Part shown: positions 27,783 through 63,976 of the stretch, in pieces
Layout of the letters: each line of letters begins with the position of its first letter
Numbering within the stretch: position 1 is the first letter of the stretch
Origin: Escherichia phage Turkey5
DNA: 64,000 nucleotides
Sequence record: PQ471516.1
Reading direction: 5' to 3' (one strand)
Position numbers and translations under genes: made by a program
The notes under the pieces: model-generated
Database searches by the model: none
What the model was told of the DNA's origin: nothing
Seen by the model: only the letters and a program-made list of their open reading frames with translations

Positions 27783-28169
27783 ATGAACAAAGAAGAGATC
27801 ACGAACCTTATTAATTCAATATATGAAGAGGTACAGGACGCAAAGAATATTTGTCAACACAGAACAGGTTACTCAACTGTAGGTGAAGTAGAAACTTTGA
27901 AACTTGCGTTATGGACACCTGACCATCTTAACTACGTGGATTGTATAATCCATAGACAAGACACGGGTGGTTATTACTTTATATCCAATTATAACGCAGA
28001 CAAACAATCTCATTTTTATGTGGAGTTTTATCCACATGCGTTTCATATGGTACAATCCGAAGAGGATGAATTTCAAAAACTCACCACTATAGGAACTGAT
28101 GAGAAATGCATTCCCTTTGAACTCTATGAAAAGATGCAGTTCATTACTAGTGCCATGATGTCATATTGA
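27783..28169 (+). CDS. hypothetical protein, weak family-A similarity
   Basis: SEEDEFQKLTTIG resembles the family-A motif. Confidence 0.45.
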   Translation: MNKEEITNLINSIYEEVQDAKNICQHRTGYSTVGEVETLKLALWTPDHLNYVDCIIHRQDTGGYYFISNYNADKQSHFYVEFYPHAFHMVQSEEDEFQKLTTIGTDEKCIPFELYEKMQFITSAMMSY

Positions 28170-28215
28170 CTAGTACTGAAAACTGTGCTATTCTTGTGTT
28201 TTAAATAGGAGATAT

Positions 28216-28722
28216 TTGATGCTCATTACACATGTACCTGAAAGTATTACTGAAATTCTAAACAAAGTTAATGTTAATGAATTTGAACGAACGGTAAGAA
28301 AACAGGATACTTACCACTATAAGCACAAAGATGGCGATCACCAAATAAACATAGATCTTAGTTATCAAACACTAACAATTAAAATGGTAACACGTTGGGA
28401 CTTTGTTCGCAAAGACAGTATTATGCTTAATTTGGATAAAGGTATTATTAGAAAATTCTTCTCTGAATCAAATGGTATCTATCCAAACAATAATAGAATT
28501 TTAACATATCAGTACTTAACTGATGAAGCTGTACATTTCCAGGAGAGCTTAATTTGTGATAACAAGTACTTTCCTAGTATGTCTGATGTTTTGAAATTAA
28601 AAGAACTATATGACTATTACTATAATGATACTAACCTTTGGGATGATGAAATGGAAAAACGTCAAAGGGAACGTAACAAAAATAAAGTCTGGACTGGTTC
28701 ACATTGGATGACACGAAAATGA
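28216..28722 (+). CDS. family-A paralog
   Basis: TDEAVHFQESLICDN motif. Confidence 0.55.
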   Translation: MMLITHVPESITEILNKVNVNEFERTVRKQDTYHYKHKDGDHQINIDLSYQTLTIKMVTRWDFVRKDSIMLNLDKGIIRKFFSESNGIYPNNNRILTYQYLTDEAVHFQESLICDNKYFPSMSDVLKLKELYDYYYNDTNLWDDEMEKRQRERNKNKVWTGSHWMTRK

Positions 28723-29132
28723 ATCAATGCTACGAAATTGATGTAACAAAACCTGAAACAAGCACTTTGGAAGCGTTGGAAGACACATTAACAGTACTAC
28801 AATCTCCTGACAAAGAAACAACATTAGTAACCATTGAATACAAGGATTGTACTGTTGATGCTGGAAAACATCCAGAGTGGAAAGCACACCAATATTACTC
28901 AATATACATTCGCTATGAAAATTTCATAACTGATATGGCCTACGCAGAGGACTATCTGTTACTGGAGAATCATTTTGTATTCAAACAAAAAGAATACATG
29001 TATTGTACTCCTGAATATCTCGAAGAAGAAGAATTTCAGTATTCTTTGGTACAGGATGAAGTTGAGTACAACAAAGTATTAGTACTGTCAAAAATACATA
29101 AAATACTAAAGGATAAATATGTCACACAGTGA
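28704..29132 (+). CDS. family-A paralog
   Basis: EEEEFQYSLVQDEV motif. Confidence 0.55.
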   Translation: MDDTKMNQCYEIDVTKPETSTLEALEDTLTVLQSPDKETTLVTIEYKDCTVDAGKHPEWKAHQYYSIYIRYENFITDMAYAEDYLLLENHFVFKQKEYMYCTPEYLEEEEFQYSLVQDEVEYNKVLVLSKIHKILKDKYVTQ

Positions 29133-29627
29133 ATGGATGTACTTTATGAAACAAAAATATGCACCTCCTTTAAACGAAAGTATTAGCTACATTCACTGGA
29201 ATGTAATCAAAAACCCTTCGTTATATAAACGATATTTCGTAGAACCAAATACTGGTTGGTTTTTAATGGAACTTATTTTTAGGGATTAATCATGACACAT
29301 GAAATTTGGTTAAACTTAATGGCACACGATTTAAAACGAAGTATTAAACACTGGGATCTATATCTGATGATGACTATCAATTCACCTGTGTACTATAAAT
29401 CAGTACTAGATGCTTCGGCCCTTACTTTCATTGCAATTTCTATGAGTAGATAATATGTCATACGATGAATGGTTTGGTATGTGTCTCAAGAGATATTACG
29501 GAGACATATACTATTTTGAGAATTTCATTTATAATTGTTTACGCAATAAAGATGAATACTATTCTAATATAGTTGTAAATGACGATTTCAGTACTTACAT
29601 AGGTATATGTTTATCATGAGGTAACTA

Positions 29628-29813
29628 ATGACATATCTAGACTGGGTTGAACGCATGGATAGAATATTTGCCAATGACGTTTTTTATTTCAGAACAGGGG
29701 GTCTGGATAAAAGCATCAAAGACGATACTCTGTTTACCAGATGTATCATTGACTATCTGAATTGTTATGGTACAATGTATGGAATAGCCCGTACTACGGA
29801 TAAAGATGAATGA
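29628..29813 (+). CDS. family-B small protein
   Basis: In ORF track; N-terminal MTYLDWV. Confidence 0.5.
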   Translation: MTYLDWVERMDRIFANDVFYFRTGGLDKSIKDDTLFTRCIIDYLNCYGTMYGIARTTDKDE

Positions 29814-30176
29814 CACATAACGAATGGTTGGTACAAACTGAACACTCGGTTATTCCAGGTATGAAATTTTGGAATGAACAGTTGATGCACTTCGTAAGTA
29901 ATAAAGTGTATTATGATGCATTCTTTGGAAAACATGCTACAATTGAGGTTCATGTGTATTATGCTATTGCATTTGGTGATTAATTTATGAAATATGACCA
30001 TTTAAAATACTATGCTGATAGAATAAATTATTATCCCTTTTATATAAGAAGCTTAGATGCATTAATATCAAAAAAAGTTGTATATAAACGATCTCAAGCT
30101 GATCTAACCAATATAGCATTCATTCTTGCAGTACTGTCTAAAATGGGATAATGTTAAATTAGGATGAATACAAAAT

Positions 30177-30368
30177 ATGACACATGAACAATGGATGAAA
30201 CAATTCAGTGAGGATTATAAAGCTGCCATATCCTTTTATGGAAAAAGATTCAACTATCTTTTTTGTAGTGAATATCATTATAGAAGTATAGTTCTTTATG
30301 AACAAATGGACGGTGAAAAACCTGCTGCTCATTGGGTTGTAATGTACATACTTGCTATGTCAAAATAA
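30177..30368 (+). CDS. family-B small protein
   Basis: In ORF track; N-terminal MTHEQWM. Confidence 0.5.
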   Translation: MTHEQWMKQFSEDYKAAISFYGKRFNYLFCSEYHYRSIVLYEQMDGEKPAAHWVVMYILAMSK

Positions 30369-30479
30369 CACAAAAAATATTTTAATAAATATATAGACAA
30401 CAACGTTATGTGTGATATAATGTTTGTCCTGAAGGAGAAAAGCATGAACGATGAATTCGACGGCTTTTAAATAATACAT

Positions 30480-30564
30480 GCACTTGTGGTGGAATCGGTA
30501 TACACAACGGATTTAAAATCCGTCGCTTTATTGCTTGCGAGTTCAAGTCTCGCCAAGTGCACCA
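30480..30564 (+). tRNA. tRNA-Leu (anticodon TAA), type II
   Basis: Acceptor gcacttg/caagtgc, anticodon arm acgga-tttaaaa-tccgt, long variable arm, T-arm gcgag-ttcaagt-ctcgc, encoded CCA. Confidence 0.8.
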
Positions 30565-62516: not shown

Positions 62517-62519
62517 AAA

Positions 62520-62873
62520 ATGTCGGATAAGTACTACTTTACGGGTAAGAAATGTGAACCATACGTTTTGGACTACAAGGAACAGGAACAACCTAAACCG
62601 AAAAAGAAAGCGAAGAAGGAAGTAGTGAAGAAGCAAAAGCCACTGGTTAAAGGATTGAAACTTAAACCTTTTCAGAAACTGGACTTTGACACTTACAGAA
62701 AGATTTATTTGGATTTGACGTGTAACATTAGCTTTGATGTTAATGCGATGAACAGGAAGTATAACCTGAAGGGTAGTTTCAATTTTTATTATGACTTAAA
62801 GAATGATGATCTTGAAGCTTACCATGAGTGGTATAACGTTATGAATAACCACGTCGATGACAATAACCCATAG
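62520..62873 (+). CDS. hypothetical basic protein
   Basis: ORF; Lys-rich segment. Confidence 0.5.
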   Translation: MSDKYYFTGKKCEPYVLDYKEQEQPKPKKKAKKEVVKKQKPLVKGLKLKPFQKLDFDTYRKIYLDLTCNISFDVNAMNRKYNLKGSFNFYYDLKNDDLEAYHEWYNVMNNHVDDNNP

Positions 62874-62881
62874 GTGAATAT

Positions 62882-63232
62882 ATGATTGAAATTATCGGAA
62901 CGATCAGTTTTGTGTCATGTGTATTGTTCTGCACTTACATGATAATTGGACACATTTTGTATTTCTTCAATTACATTACTGTGTTTAAAAAATTCTACTT
63001 CGAAAAGAGTGGATTTTTGTTTTACATTTGTGATTTTTTCACGTGGGTGTCAATGGGTGCAGTTATAATGGATATTATGTTTAGTGAAGATGTTTCTAAG
63101 GTAGGGTTCGGAATGACGCTTCTACCATTTGCACTATTCGTTACCCTTGTAGCTTTGTTCTTGATAGTGTTATCAAGTAATTTTATATCAGAGAAATTAA
63201 ACAAGGCTAGAGAAAACTTCCCAATGCGATAA
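62882..63232 (+). CDS. family-C membrane protein
   Basis: Same topology; C-terminus ...ENFPMR. Confidence 0.55.
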   Translation: MIEIIGTISFVSCVLFCTYMIIGHILYFFNYITVFKKFYFEKSGFLFYICDFFTWVSMGAVIMDIMFSEDVSKVGFGMTLLPFALFVTLVALFLIVLSSNFISEKLNKARENFPMR

Positions 63233-63243
63233 AGGAGCATACT

Positions 63244-63570
63244 ATGTTCGCACTACGTAATAAAAAGACTCACCAAATCGTTGATTATGAATGGGTTTAC
63301 TATTCCAATACTGGCGGCCCTGAGATGATTCTGTGCCATGACGGTGAAGAACCATTTGTAACAAAACGCCGTGAAGCACTAGAAGAGATCATCGAAGAAT
63401 ACAATACCAATGTAAATGCTGAAAATGGTCCTTATGACGATGGCCTACGTGTAGAGTTACCTGATGCTTATGAACATGGTAACACGGATTCTTTACGTAT
63501 AGAGTTGCCAGATGCTTATGAATCTGGTAACATGGATTCTTATGAGATTGTAGAACTGGTGGTTAAGTAA
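63244..63570 (+). CDS. hypothetical acidic protein with internal repeat
   Basis: RVELPDAYEHGNTDS / RIELPDAYESGNMDS tandem repeat. Confidence 0.5.
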   Translation: MFALRNKKTHQIVDYEWVYYSNTGGPEMILCHDGEEPFVTKRREALEEIIEEYNTNVNAENGPYDDGLRVELPDAYEHGNTDSLRIELPDAYESGNMDSYEIVELVVK

Positions 63571-63947
63571 TGCGTGTAATGTATAAAGTAACTGAGCTAA
63601 ACAAGCGTCTGCTTAAGATTTCTATGTTCGAGGATAAAGAGTCTCTCTATAACTTTAAACGTGCTGTAGAGGCTGCTATGCATCTACAGAAGCTTAAGGA
63701 TAAAGGGTGTATTATTCTAGAGAATAATTCAGTACTGGATGGTGACTTCAAAGTAGCCTTTGATGAAGCAGAAGATGGAACACTTTCTATGCCACGATTG
63801 GGTACGGGTGACATGACAGTGTGGATTGGCTTTACTATGGGAAACAAGAAAGGAACTGTATACGTTGATGAAGACGAGTTGAAAGACAGCTTCAAAAACT
63901 TATCGTACCTCGAACCACAATATTCTCATAAATTAAGTTTATTTTGA
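63570..63947 (+). CDS. hypothetical protein
   Basis: ORF, stop-start overlap. Confidence 0.5.
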   Translation: MRVMYKVTELNKRLLKISMFEDKESLYNFKRAVEAAMHLQKLKDKGCIILENNSVLDGDFKVAFDEAEDGTLSMPRLGTGDMTVWIGFTMGNKKGTVYVDEDELKDSFKNLSYLEPQYSHKLSLF

Positions 63948-63948
63948 G

Positions 63949-63976
63949 TTGACAATATAGTTCAGTACTGTATAAT
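63949..63976 (+). promoter_or_regulatory. sigma70-like promoter with CAGTACTG in spacer
   Basis: TTGACA, 16 nt, TATAAT. Confidence 0.6.

Follow-up and report, generated by a model that had tools for sequence, protein, structure and literature searches.

The stretch of Escherichia phage Turkey5 DNA analyzed here (PQ471516.1; 64,000 nucleotides in full, hereafter the window) carries nearly all of its genes on the + strand. Its first third holds replication and virion genes together with a C5-cytosine DNA methyltransferase gene, tRNA genes lie in the middle, and the rest consists of many small genes of unassigned function plus a sigma-70-family factor (47905-48867). By megablast, the window is ~98% identical to Escherichia phage vB_EcoM_JNE01 (OR670491.1, ~214.7-282.9 kb; hereafter JNE01) and ~78% identical to the PBECO4/121Q/phAPEC6/fEgEco12 group, which are Asteriusvirus-type, Rak2-like myoviruses of ~350 kb. 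A first-pass annotation of the window had described an 8-bp palindrome, CAGTACTG, recurring in promoter spacers and intergenic DNA, and had suggested that it might be the operator of a dimeric regulator or else a nuclease or methyltransferase recognition site. We examined this palindrome and its hexameric core, AGTACT, in the window, across the 350 kb of JNE01, and in other relatives, the latter sampled as 22-50 kb loci. Expected counts were derived from first-order Markov or shuffle models, and the gene calls behind the statistics are simple longest open reading frame (ORF) calls.

All of the palindrome copies listed by the first-pass annotation exist, with coordinates that were off by 1-3 bases at most (Table 1). 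Each of the four promoter copies sits within a sigma-70-like promoter that was independently called by a consensus scan, and the TAGTACTG copy reported near 28169 is likewise present. The three copies reported within 36430-36480 comprise two exact ones (starting at 36438 and 36472) and the one-mismatch CTGTACTG, while the longer palindrome ATTCAGTACTGAAT is found twice and is joined by a partial copy, ATTCAGTACT, located 9 nt upstream of a promoter-like TTGACA-17-TATTAT (35338-35366). An Rfam scan of the tRNA region placed no RNA family at the palindrome clusters. Although these copies are real, the listing was incomplete. The window has 36 exact copies of CAGTACTG, whereas 100 dinucleotide-preserving shuffles gave 0.77 on average and never more than 4. 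The copies span its whole length, with 15 of them lying before 28169. Most (27/36) are found within ORFs, in two reading phases (17 and 10 copies). The basic unit also proved to be shorter. A maximal-order Markov model predicts 36.4 copies of CAGTACTG from its 7-mers, so the 8-mer count is fully accounted for by the shorter words and the octamer was rejected as the basic unit in favor of AGTACT. This hexamer occurs 154 times in the window versus 20.1 expected (first-order Markov), a 7.65-fold excess that makes it the top hexamer of the window and its sole strongly enriched palindromic hexamer. Enrichment climbs with palindrome length, from 8 to 40 and then to >60 fold, and the window sites favor C at -1 (45%) and G at +1 (52%), each worth ~0.3 bit. 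Variants at the outer position (NGTACT) are still 1.3 to 2.9-fold enriched in the window, which suggests a graded affinity for the putative reader of these sites. A still longer palindrome, TGCACCAGTACTGGTGCA, was discarded as an artefact arising from the repeat domains of large structural genes (JNE01, 99-108 kb).

The same excess extends over the entire JNE01 chromosome, which contains 978 copies of AGTACT (117 expected, 8.4 fold) and 229 copies of CAGTACTG (5.7 expected, 40 fold). Sites are present in every 10-kb bin (13-67 per bin), with a density peak at 300-330 kb, where small genes with promoters of their own are numerous, and genes of either strand carry them (2.7 and 2.1 per kb). Overall, the spacing is about one copy per 360-420 bp of phage chromosome. 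In JNE01 the gaps between sites have a mean of 358 bp and a median of 237 bp (248 expected), with a coefficient of variation of 1.07 and no periodicity. A bias toward gene 5' ends and a regular spacing were both suspected at first, but neither was borne out genome-wide, as the deciles of relative gene position are flat and the gaps are near-exponential. The sole host baseline, 50 kb of E. coli K-12, has only 3 sites (4.8 expected), making the phage ~40 times denser than this sample. The longest site-free gap of the window is 2.3 kb (53400-55746). JNE01 includes an AGTACT-free stretch of 4.9 kb (335963-340906), for which the whole-genome chance is ~1e-3 and which may be recently acquired DNA. 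At the other extreme, a non-coding tandem repeat with a period of ~66 bp at 310884-311021 of JNE01 contains seven AGTACT copies 13 bp apart (gattcAGTACTGaatgatAGTACTGaataatAGTACT) and looks like a binding-site array. Sites are also found just before terminator hairpins in JNE01, in the form AGTACTGAATCA-hairpin.

Since most of the sites are located within genes, we considered whether the enrichment could be a byproduct of coding. In the window, 131 of the 154 sites fall in called genes, distributed over the phases 54/26/48 in + strand genes with 3 more in the single - strand gene, while the remaining 23 lie in its 7.2 kb of non-coding DNA. Permuting synonymous codons within genes yields 43.1±5.6 genic sites and permuting codon order yields 22.6±4.7. 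Thus, codon or dipeptide bias was rejected as the cause, as the observed 131 genic sites exceed these nulls by ~3 fold and ~6 fold. In JNE01 the hexamer even distorts protein sequence, overriding both codon choice and amino acid sequence across 350 kb. Ser-Thr dipeptides number 737 versus 499 expected and are encoded as AGT-ACT in 52% of cases (16% expected from codon usage), whereas the reverse dipeptide, Thr-Ser, shows no excess. Val-Leu dipeptides are similarly overrepresented (762 versus 581 expected, with GTA-CTN at 383 versus 167), and the Tyr frame (nAG-TAC-Tnn) has 144 copies versus 39 expected. With 813 of the 978 JNE01 sites in genes, and including the window, about 83-85% of sites are genic. 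The coding DNA is several-fold enriched in all three frames, which does not agree with the first-pass view of an operator in promoters and intergenic DNA. Nonetheless, the preference for non-coding DNA that this view implied does exist, as JNE01 has 4.8 sites per kb of non-coding DNA versus 2.6 per kb of coding DNA, a 1.85-fold difference.

The sequences surrounding the sites also show two-fold symmetry. Over the 978 JNE01 sites, base frequencies at each position -i resemble the complements at +i out to ±8. For example, A/C/G/T at -1 are.25/.45/.12/.18 compared to.20/.49/.08/.23 for the complemented +1 position, T at -3 (.41) is mirrored by A at +3 (.45), and A at -8 (.44) by T at +8 (.38). 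The two flanks vary independently, with joint C/G at.234 versus.220 expected. Because these flanks are mirrored despite strongly strand-asymmetric coding, AGTACT is most simply explained as being read on duplex DNA with two-fold symmetry. This is the behavior expected of a symmetric protein or a type II enzyme acting upon duplex DNA, and in this respect the element is the true palindrome that it had initially been taken for.

Comparisons of orthologous DNA indicate that individual sites are under purifying selection, even though their positions turn over at depth while the density is held. Relative to JNE01 (1.9% divergence over 53 kb aligned), differences within sites occur at 0.49% versus 1.94% elsewhere, which amounts to 4 changes where ~16 were expected. 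Gains and losses roughly balance, as 4 window sites are absent from JNE01 and 6 JNE01 sites are absent from the window. Relative to fEgEco12 (77% identity), 45 of 82 aligned sites (55%) are intact compared to 26.5% of all hexamer windows. Codon-aligned orthologues gave a similar result for fEgEco12 (22/41 sites shared versus 21% background), RaK2 (4/8, or 50%, versus 11.5%), and Yersinia phage fHe-Yen9-04 (4/23, or 17%, versus 7.5%), and the number of shared sites expected from chance coincidence was ≤0.1 in each of these three comparisons. On the other hand, 30 of the 34 fHe-Yen9-04 sites are located at positions of their own. As the sites of distant genomes are mostly at new positions, it is the density rather than the position that is maintained.

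Every enterobacterial relative examined was enriched, including the CBB-like relatives. AGTACT was 8.3 to 9.5-fold overrepresented at two fEgEco12 loci, 10.6-fold in RaK2, 8.0-fold in GAP32, 10.4-fold in Yersinia fHe-Yen9-04, and 6.7 to 10.9-fold in 14 of 14 IMG/VR loci surrounding a homologue of a 797-aa virion protein (44-77% identity). The excess of 7-11 fold is therefore kept through divergence down to ~45% protein identity. The more distant relatives PA5oct of Pseudomonas (0.21 fold) and 2.275.O of Vibrio (1.0 fold) showed no enrichment. Neither did two unrelated phages of the same host, T4 (6 sites in 50 kb, 0.64 fold) and phi92, which has no AGTACT at all (10.9 expected). The preference for C at -1 and G at +1 that yields CAGTACTG is limited to the Escherichia/Klebsiella lineages (Asteriusvirus and Alcyoneusvirus), whereas Eneladusvirus and Mimasvirus flanks prefer A/T instead; G at -1 and C at +1 are disfavored in every lineage. 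Palindromes are otherwise subject to extreme avoidance in these genomes. GCGC is missing from the window, from JNE01 (231 expected), and from all 14 of the related loci, and a total of 22 palindromic hexamers stand at zero in JNE01 despite 5-48 expected copies (e.g., GGATCC, CTGCAG, GGTACC, GTCGAC, and CCATGG). CCWGG is not avoided (1.29 fold).

A small subset of the sites occupies fixed positions at promoters. As listed in Table 1, four window promoters carry CAGTACTG immediately beside the -10, and in the first of these the palindrome supplies the TG of an extended -10 (TGaTAAAAT). In a fifth promoter-like sequence the hexamer instead overlaps the -35, and this layout (AGTAC/TTGCAA) recurs ~20 times in the JNE01 early region. 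At 1, 2, and 21 nt upstream of TAnAAT -10 hexamers, JNE01 has 15, 10, and 20 copies, respectively, versus 2.2 expected per offset. Overall, 33 of 107 plus-strand promoter-like sequences in JNE01 have AGTACT beside the -10 or over the -35, 26 of these 33 being located at 300-350 kb, and several of its promoters hold both copies, 20 bp apart. The palindrome thus resembles classical dimeric-repressor operators in its dyad symmetry and in its location between the -35 and -10 or over the -35 of sigma-70 promoters, and this part of the operator proposal stands. However, promoter copies constitute only about 3-5% of all sites, so that ~95% lie outside promoters. In addition, just 5 of the ~17 intergenic promoter-like sites in the window carry the hexamer (four proximal to the -10 and one over the -35), leaving 12 without it. 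If a dimeric transcription regulator acting at promoters were the whole explanation, the intragenic copies would have to be incidental, yet these exceed the codon-based nulls by ~3 and ~6 fold, are conserved at 2-4 times background, and change 4 times more slowly than the surrounding DNA. Unlike classical operators, they are selected inside genes, and no cognate regulator was found among 50 window ORFs. The presence of some 1000 selected sites in each genome is not explained by an ordinary gene-regulator operator, and we consider such an account very improbable.

Table 1. Location of AGTACT sites, palindrome-bearing promoters, non-coding palindrome clusters, and candidate methyltransferase genes. 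Coordinates refer to the window unless JNE01 is given; † marks AGTACT in CAGTACTG context, where the 8-mer starts one base earlier.
Feature	Position	Strand	Description	Neighboring or supporting feature
Promoter	31661-31689	+	TTGACT-17-TAAAAT; CAGTACTG at 31675-31682 ends 1 nt before -10	upstream of tRNA-Ser(UGA), 31696-31785
Promoter	32772-32800	+	TTGACT-17-TATAAT; CAGTACTG at 32786-32793 ends 1 nt before -10	upstream of tRNA-Ser(GCU), 32807-32896
Promoter	61500-61528	+	TTGACA-17-TATAAT, 12/12 consensus; CAGTACTG at 61515-61522 abuts -10	upstream of ORF 61549-61839
Promoter	63949-63976	+	TTGACA-16-TATAAT, 12/12 consensus; CAGTACTG at 63963-63970 abuts -10	
Promoter-like	46628-46661	+	TTGACC-17-TACAAT; AGTACT at 46628-46633 overlaps -35, reading AAGTACTTGACC	second fixed promoter position
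TAGTACTG	28171-28178		AGTACT at 28172-28177	gap between ORFs 27783-28169 and 28216-28722
Non-coding stretch	35084-35328	.	three long palindromes of gtATTCAGTACTGAAT type: 35084-35097, 35205-35218, and partial 35319-35328	
Intergenic cluster	36435-36481	.	ATTCAGTACTGGAT at 36435-36448; one-mismatch CTGTACTG at 36452-36459; CCAGTACTGG at 36471-36480	
C5-cytosine DNA methyltransferase gene	20796-21656	+		Pfam PF00145, 6.6e-37
N6-adenine methyltransferase, small phage-type	JNE01 9317-9844			PF05869
AGTACT starts, part 1	611† 806 1447 1565 1853† 2747 2981 3679† 3846 5306† 5733 6314 6764 7236 7475 7854 8799 9654† 10994 11505 11796† 12131 12261 14316 14388† 15442† 15978 16533 16555 17645 18263 18448† 18748 18816 19997†			
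AGTACT starts, part 2	20024 20505† 20639 20810 21143 21215† 21469 21762† 22477 23056† 23497 23732 24093 24593 25126† 25185 25614 26135 26433 26554 26897 27753 28172 28511 28565 28793 29081 29402 29590 30130† 30665 30962 31047 31676† 32352 32692 32787† 32917 33012 33488			
AGTACT starts, part 3	34839† 34881 34945 35088† 35209† 35323 36098 36439† 36473† 36686 37038 37404 37636 37822 38296 38536 39134 39256 39608 39811† 40806 41100 41277 41716† 42009 42279 42770 43305 43558 43731 43918 44341 45235 45576 46610 46628 46981 47089 47446 47580 47791 47808 47940			
AGTACT starts, part 4	48166 48532 48797 48955 49207 49782 49974 50067 50202 50549† 51555 51705† 51733 51818 52470† 52943 53400 55746† 55981 56574 56967† 58237† 58400† 59295 59679 59994 60018 61128† 61393 61516† 61727 61810 62327 62530 63731† 63964†			

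The interpretation that we tentatively favor, while giving it somewhat less than even confidence, is that AGTACT forms a dense array for a putative, probably phage-encoded, symmetric DNA-binding protein and that the same sites double as an operator of early promoters. In such a scheme, a two-fold symmetric protein, most likely encoded by the phage, would read duplex AGTACT, preferably as ttCAGTACTGaa in this lineage, and selection holding about one site per 360-420 bp would supply ~1000 binding or nucleation sites per genome. The array could then confer its own nucleoprotein or "self" state upon the phage DNA, with a benefit that scales with the number or density of sites chromosome-wide. A few of the sites overlap the -35 or abut the -10 of early promoters of the sigma-70 type, two of which precede tRNA-Ser genes. 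Occupancy of these sites would be expected to put the protein in competition with host RNA polymerase and so silence the promoters. Here we infer the existence of the reader protein, its phage origin, its repression of promoters by binding, and the purpose of the array from the pattern of the sites. Several considerations weigh against this proposal. A Pfam scan of 50 distinct window ORFs, from a genome of ~355 kb, detected no DNA-binding family above the curated cut-off; the only DNA-binding matches were sub-threshold (helix-turn-helix, HTH, for ORF 33374-34078 and EST1-like for ORF 24721-25566). Similarly, PHROGs assigned only unknown functions or membrane protein to the 10 window ORFs that were searched, with no DNA-binding function among them. 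We know of no phage regulator having ~1000 selected intragenic sites, and the purpose of the array is a conjecture. Roadblocks at such a density might hinder transcription and replication, the primary reader could be an enzyme instead of a binder, and promoter cassettes that were duplicated, as opposed to independent selection, could account in part for the fixed promoter positions. We further note that the strand statistics of a palindrome alone cannot separate recognition at the DNA level from RNA-level or single-strand recognition.

The methyltransferase genes of these phages are candidates for an enzymatic reader. AGTACT is identical to the recognition site of ScaI, of which Eco255I is an E. 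coli isoschizomer. It could therefore be the target of an orphan phage methyltransferase of either the C5 or the N6-adenine type, in which case the methyl mark would matter rather than the occupancy of a binder, serving either as protection from ScaI-like host enzymes or in a methyl-directed process, such as strand discrimination, self-recognition, or timing, that requires marks a few hundred bases apart. The avoidance of other palindromes is in keeping with this idea, as it indicates that the DNA is exposed to type II enzymes and yet AGTACT is tolerated. The complete lack of sites in phi92, which infects the same host, further suggests that ScaI-like restriction operates in these hosts, and orphan AGTACT methyltransferases do exist in giant viruses. 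Orthologues of the N6-adenine methyltransferase were found in every enriched genus sampled (Asteriusvirus, the Klebsiella phages, GAP32, Serratia BF, and the CBB-like phages), and orthologues of the C5 enzyme were found in most enriched genera (Asteriusvirus, Alcyoneusvirus, GAP32, and CBB-like phages). The C5 gene itself holds four of the sites (20810, 21143, 21215, and 21469), and its product has a short variable region, its nearest solved relatives being the catalytic domains of DNMT3, which have a short target recognition domain. The window copy of this gene is uninterrupted, while those of JNE01 (235566-237455), TH47, ph0011, UE-S1, and A4 have an in-frame insertion of ~1026 bp at the catalytic PCQ motif. 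The insertion resembles an intein and contains no AGTACT.

Several of the patterns just described do not fit well with methylation as the driver. Among the C5 matches at E≤1e-60, none came from Yersinia or Serratia phages (Eneladusvirus), yet Eneladusvirus is 10-fold enriched, and conversely phi92 encodes a C5 enzyme of 50% identity, with a 49-residue insertion in its variable region, but has zero sites. These two patterns count against the C5 enzyme as the driver without refuting it. GGTACC (0 versus 37 expected) and CGTACG (0 versus 25) are wholly avoided in JNE01, which makes a general methylation of GTAC unlikely. The enzyme SexAI is blocked by dcm methylation, and m5C in an A-C context at ~1000 sites would expose a phage to McrBC in K-12 hosts; at least one relative, Sharanji, lists K-12 MG1655 as its host. 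When fEgEco12 DNA was digested with ten enzymes, including EcoRI, HindIII, ClaI, NruI, and SexAI but with ScaI outside the set, it was cut as predicted (PMC13070987), which argues against broad adenine or dcm-type methylation. A Dcm-like CCWGG specificity for the C5 enzyme is thus unlikely, given the SexAI result (PMC13070987). Furthermore, orthologous sites differ at all positions, and the C-to-T product is not in excess. Methylation alone would only lift the pressure to avoid the site, and an 8-fold positive selection still needs a reader. The sequence identity with a ScaI/Eco255I-type site is also accompanied by an opposite distribution, as restriction sites are normally avoided by exposed phages, as in phi92, whereas here the site is 8-fold enriched. 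Taken together, we regard methylation or restriction as an unlikely explanation for the array.

A reader supplied by the host was also considered, namely a factor of the Enterobacterales, such as a nucleoid-occlusion-type protein, an SOS regulator, or another nucleoid protein, which the phage would titrate or recruit. The distribution of the enrichment is compatible with this, since it is found only in relatives infecting Enterobacterales and not in those of Pseudomonas or Vibrio, although the enriched phages make up a single subclade in which host range and ancestry are confounded. Moreover, the E. coli SlmA binding site (SBS), GTGAGTACTCAC, has an AGTACT core. Like the Noc binding sites (NBS), SBS are scattered chromosomal palindromes that nucleate a DNA-bound protein, but they number in the tens per 4.6 Mb, compared to ~1000 sites per 0.35 Mb here. 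At positions 1-2, SlmA has a strong preference for G and T, the mutation of which significantly impairs its binding, and at position 3 it prefers a purine (PMC3020112). These required flanks are absent from the phage sites, which mostly have C or A at -1 and T at -3, and the 350 kb of JNE01 contains 0 matches to the SlmA consensus GTRAGYRCTYAC, so AGTACT was rejected as a set of SlmA sites. LexA half-sites were likewise dismissed by inspection, as the halves of CAGTACTG are everted with no CTG-N10-CAG and the flank is absent in other genera. The disfavor of G at -1 and C at +1 in every lineage is a further obstacle, and phage genera with related hosts have different flank preferences, which fits better with a co-evolving phage protein than with a conserved protein of the host. 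Accordingly, a host factor seems improbable as the reader, and a phage-encoded protein is still the candidate that we prefer.

The closest known phenomenon is HIP1 (GCGATCGC) of cyanobacteria, which reaches up to about one copy per 350-1000 bp, is genic in all frames, is conserved between orthologues, and has a suspected link to methyltransferases. AGTACT is comparable in being a short palindrome far above chance (one per 358 bp, 8.4 fold, with the 8-mer at 40 fold), present in all frames and conserved in excess. It differs in being a 6-bp, AT-rich word found in a clade of virulent jumbo phages rather than in a cellular genome, in having a subset of copies at fixed promoter positions, and in lacking both a repair-drive signature and a known nested methyltransferase site. 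A non-adaptive drive was once proposed for HIP1, and in the phages an equivalent process of biased mismatch repair, deamination repair, or gene conversion could turn near-sites into AGTACT. The HIP1-like density, presence in all reading frames, and excess conservation speak for this, and such a drive would mimic selection in substitution statistics. T4-like replication is recombination-dependent and generates much heteroduplex. However, the deamination products AGTATT (1.63 fold) and AATACT (1.37 fold) are not depleted in the window. Where orthologous sites differ by a single base (30 cases), the changes are spread over all three half-site positions (6, 13, and 11) without a dominant mismatch. 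On this basis, a drive of the deamination or very-short-patch repair type was rejected for lack of a signature, while a sequence-directed bias in gene conversion could conceivably be a source of sites. In addition, gains and losses are about equal, and a drive leaves both the fixed promoter positions and the non-coding arrays unexplained. We therefore give a slim chance to non-adaptive drive as a whole.

Chi in bacteria likewise displays uniform spacing and a density-type selection with turnover. AGTACT could accordingly be a phage-private, Chi-like signal for a translocating helicase-nuclease, with a palindromic form that lets it function from both ends, or alternatively an RNA element, AGUACU, that arises from transcription of either strand, and pairs of copies can indeed base-pair in RNA. 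The E. coli Chi sequence itself, GCTGGTGG, is overrepresented in JNE01 (18 copies on + and 7 on -, versus 1.8 and 1.3 expected), which suggests pressure from RecBCD. Like Chi and the DNA uptake sequences, AGTACT would mark self DNA through density-based overrepresentation, with many weakly selected copies subject to turnover. Known Chi-type signals are nonetheless asymmetric, orientation-biased words, as are uptake sequences in their dependence upon orientation, whereas AGTACT is perfectly palindromic and its flanks are symmetric out to ±8. Recognition of the duplex is also suggested by the placement at promoters and over the -35, and sites are also found in non-transcribed spacers and arrays. 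For these reasons, a single-strand or RNA-level signal has a low probability in our estimation. Within JNE01, 11 of the 18 + strand Chi copies are clustered in the early small-gene region (309.8-329.2 kb), and at least one Chi copy pairs with its complement in a hairpin stem (CCACCAGCttgtGCTGGTGG, 309929-309948); the window has a single copy, at 49109. Each of the other known elements compared here (operators, the ScaI site, SlmA/Noc sites, and Chi) resembles AGTACT in one aspect and departs from it in others.

It is conceivable, though in our view somewhat unlikely, that AGTACT serves as a sequence-encoded identity mark of the enterobacterial jumbo phage clade, its ~1000 selected copies per genome nucleating or guiding a phage-encoded discrimination between self and host DNA. 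Such a system might coat or shield the phage DNA, partition transcription, or constitute a private methyl-directed or nuclease-directed process, and it would do the same job as the base hypermodification of T-even phages or the phage nucleus of phiKZ-like phages. To our knowledge, no dense palindromic self-code has previously been described for a virus. We found no description of the AGTACT feature in the open-access literature on these phages, jumbo phages, palindromes, or methylomes, although an earlier report may exist elsewhere. The Rak2-like jumbo phages (Asteriusvirus, Alcyoneusvirus, Mimasvirus, Eneladusvirus, and CBB-like) are under study for therapy despite having >80% of their genes without known function, and a maintained hexamer points to an unrecognized, essential DNA-protein system. 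Identification of its reader could explain how these phages discriminate self from host DNA, how their early promoters are shut off, and how ~1000 ScaI-type sites are tolerated. Hosts with ScaI-like restriction are predicted to be a barrier, unless the phage carries a specific countermeasure. DNA of these phages has behaved as unmodified at all of the restriction sites tested to date (PMC13070987), and nearly all other palindromes are visibly avoided. The hexamer also provides a simple signature for detecting the clade in metagenomes and a second tractable system for the HIP1 puzzle.

Several additional features were observed in the vicinity of the palindrome-bearing promoters. Between those at 61500 and 63949, seven adjacent ORFs of ~96-125 aa with unassigned functions occupy 61549-63947. 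In the tRNA region, a weak tRNA-like Rfam match (33 bits, E 6e-4) that was uncalled by ARAGORN directly follows tRNA-Ser(UGA) at 31790-31868, and a group I intron (Rfam RF00028, 95 bits) is located at 32996-33309, just after tRNA-Ser(GCU). The intron is followed by a 234-aa ORF (33374-34078) that has weak HTH matches and could be a homing endonuclease. The segment from 33045 to 34166 is without a counterpart at this place in JNE01, which has a different HNH gene there. Finally, both tRNA-Ser genes start ~7 nt past the -10 of their own strong promoters (31684-31696 and 32795-32807). Given this distance, the primary transcripts are predicted to begin at the mature 5' end or right beside it, with almost no leader for RNase P.

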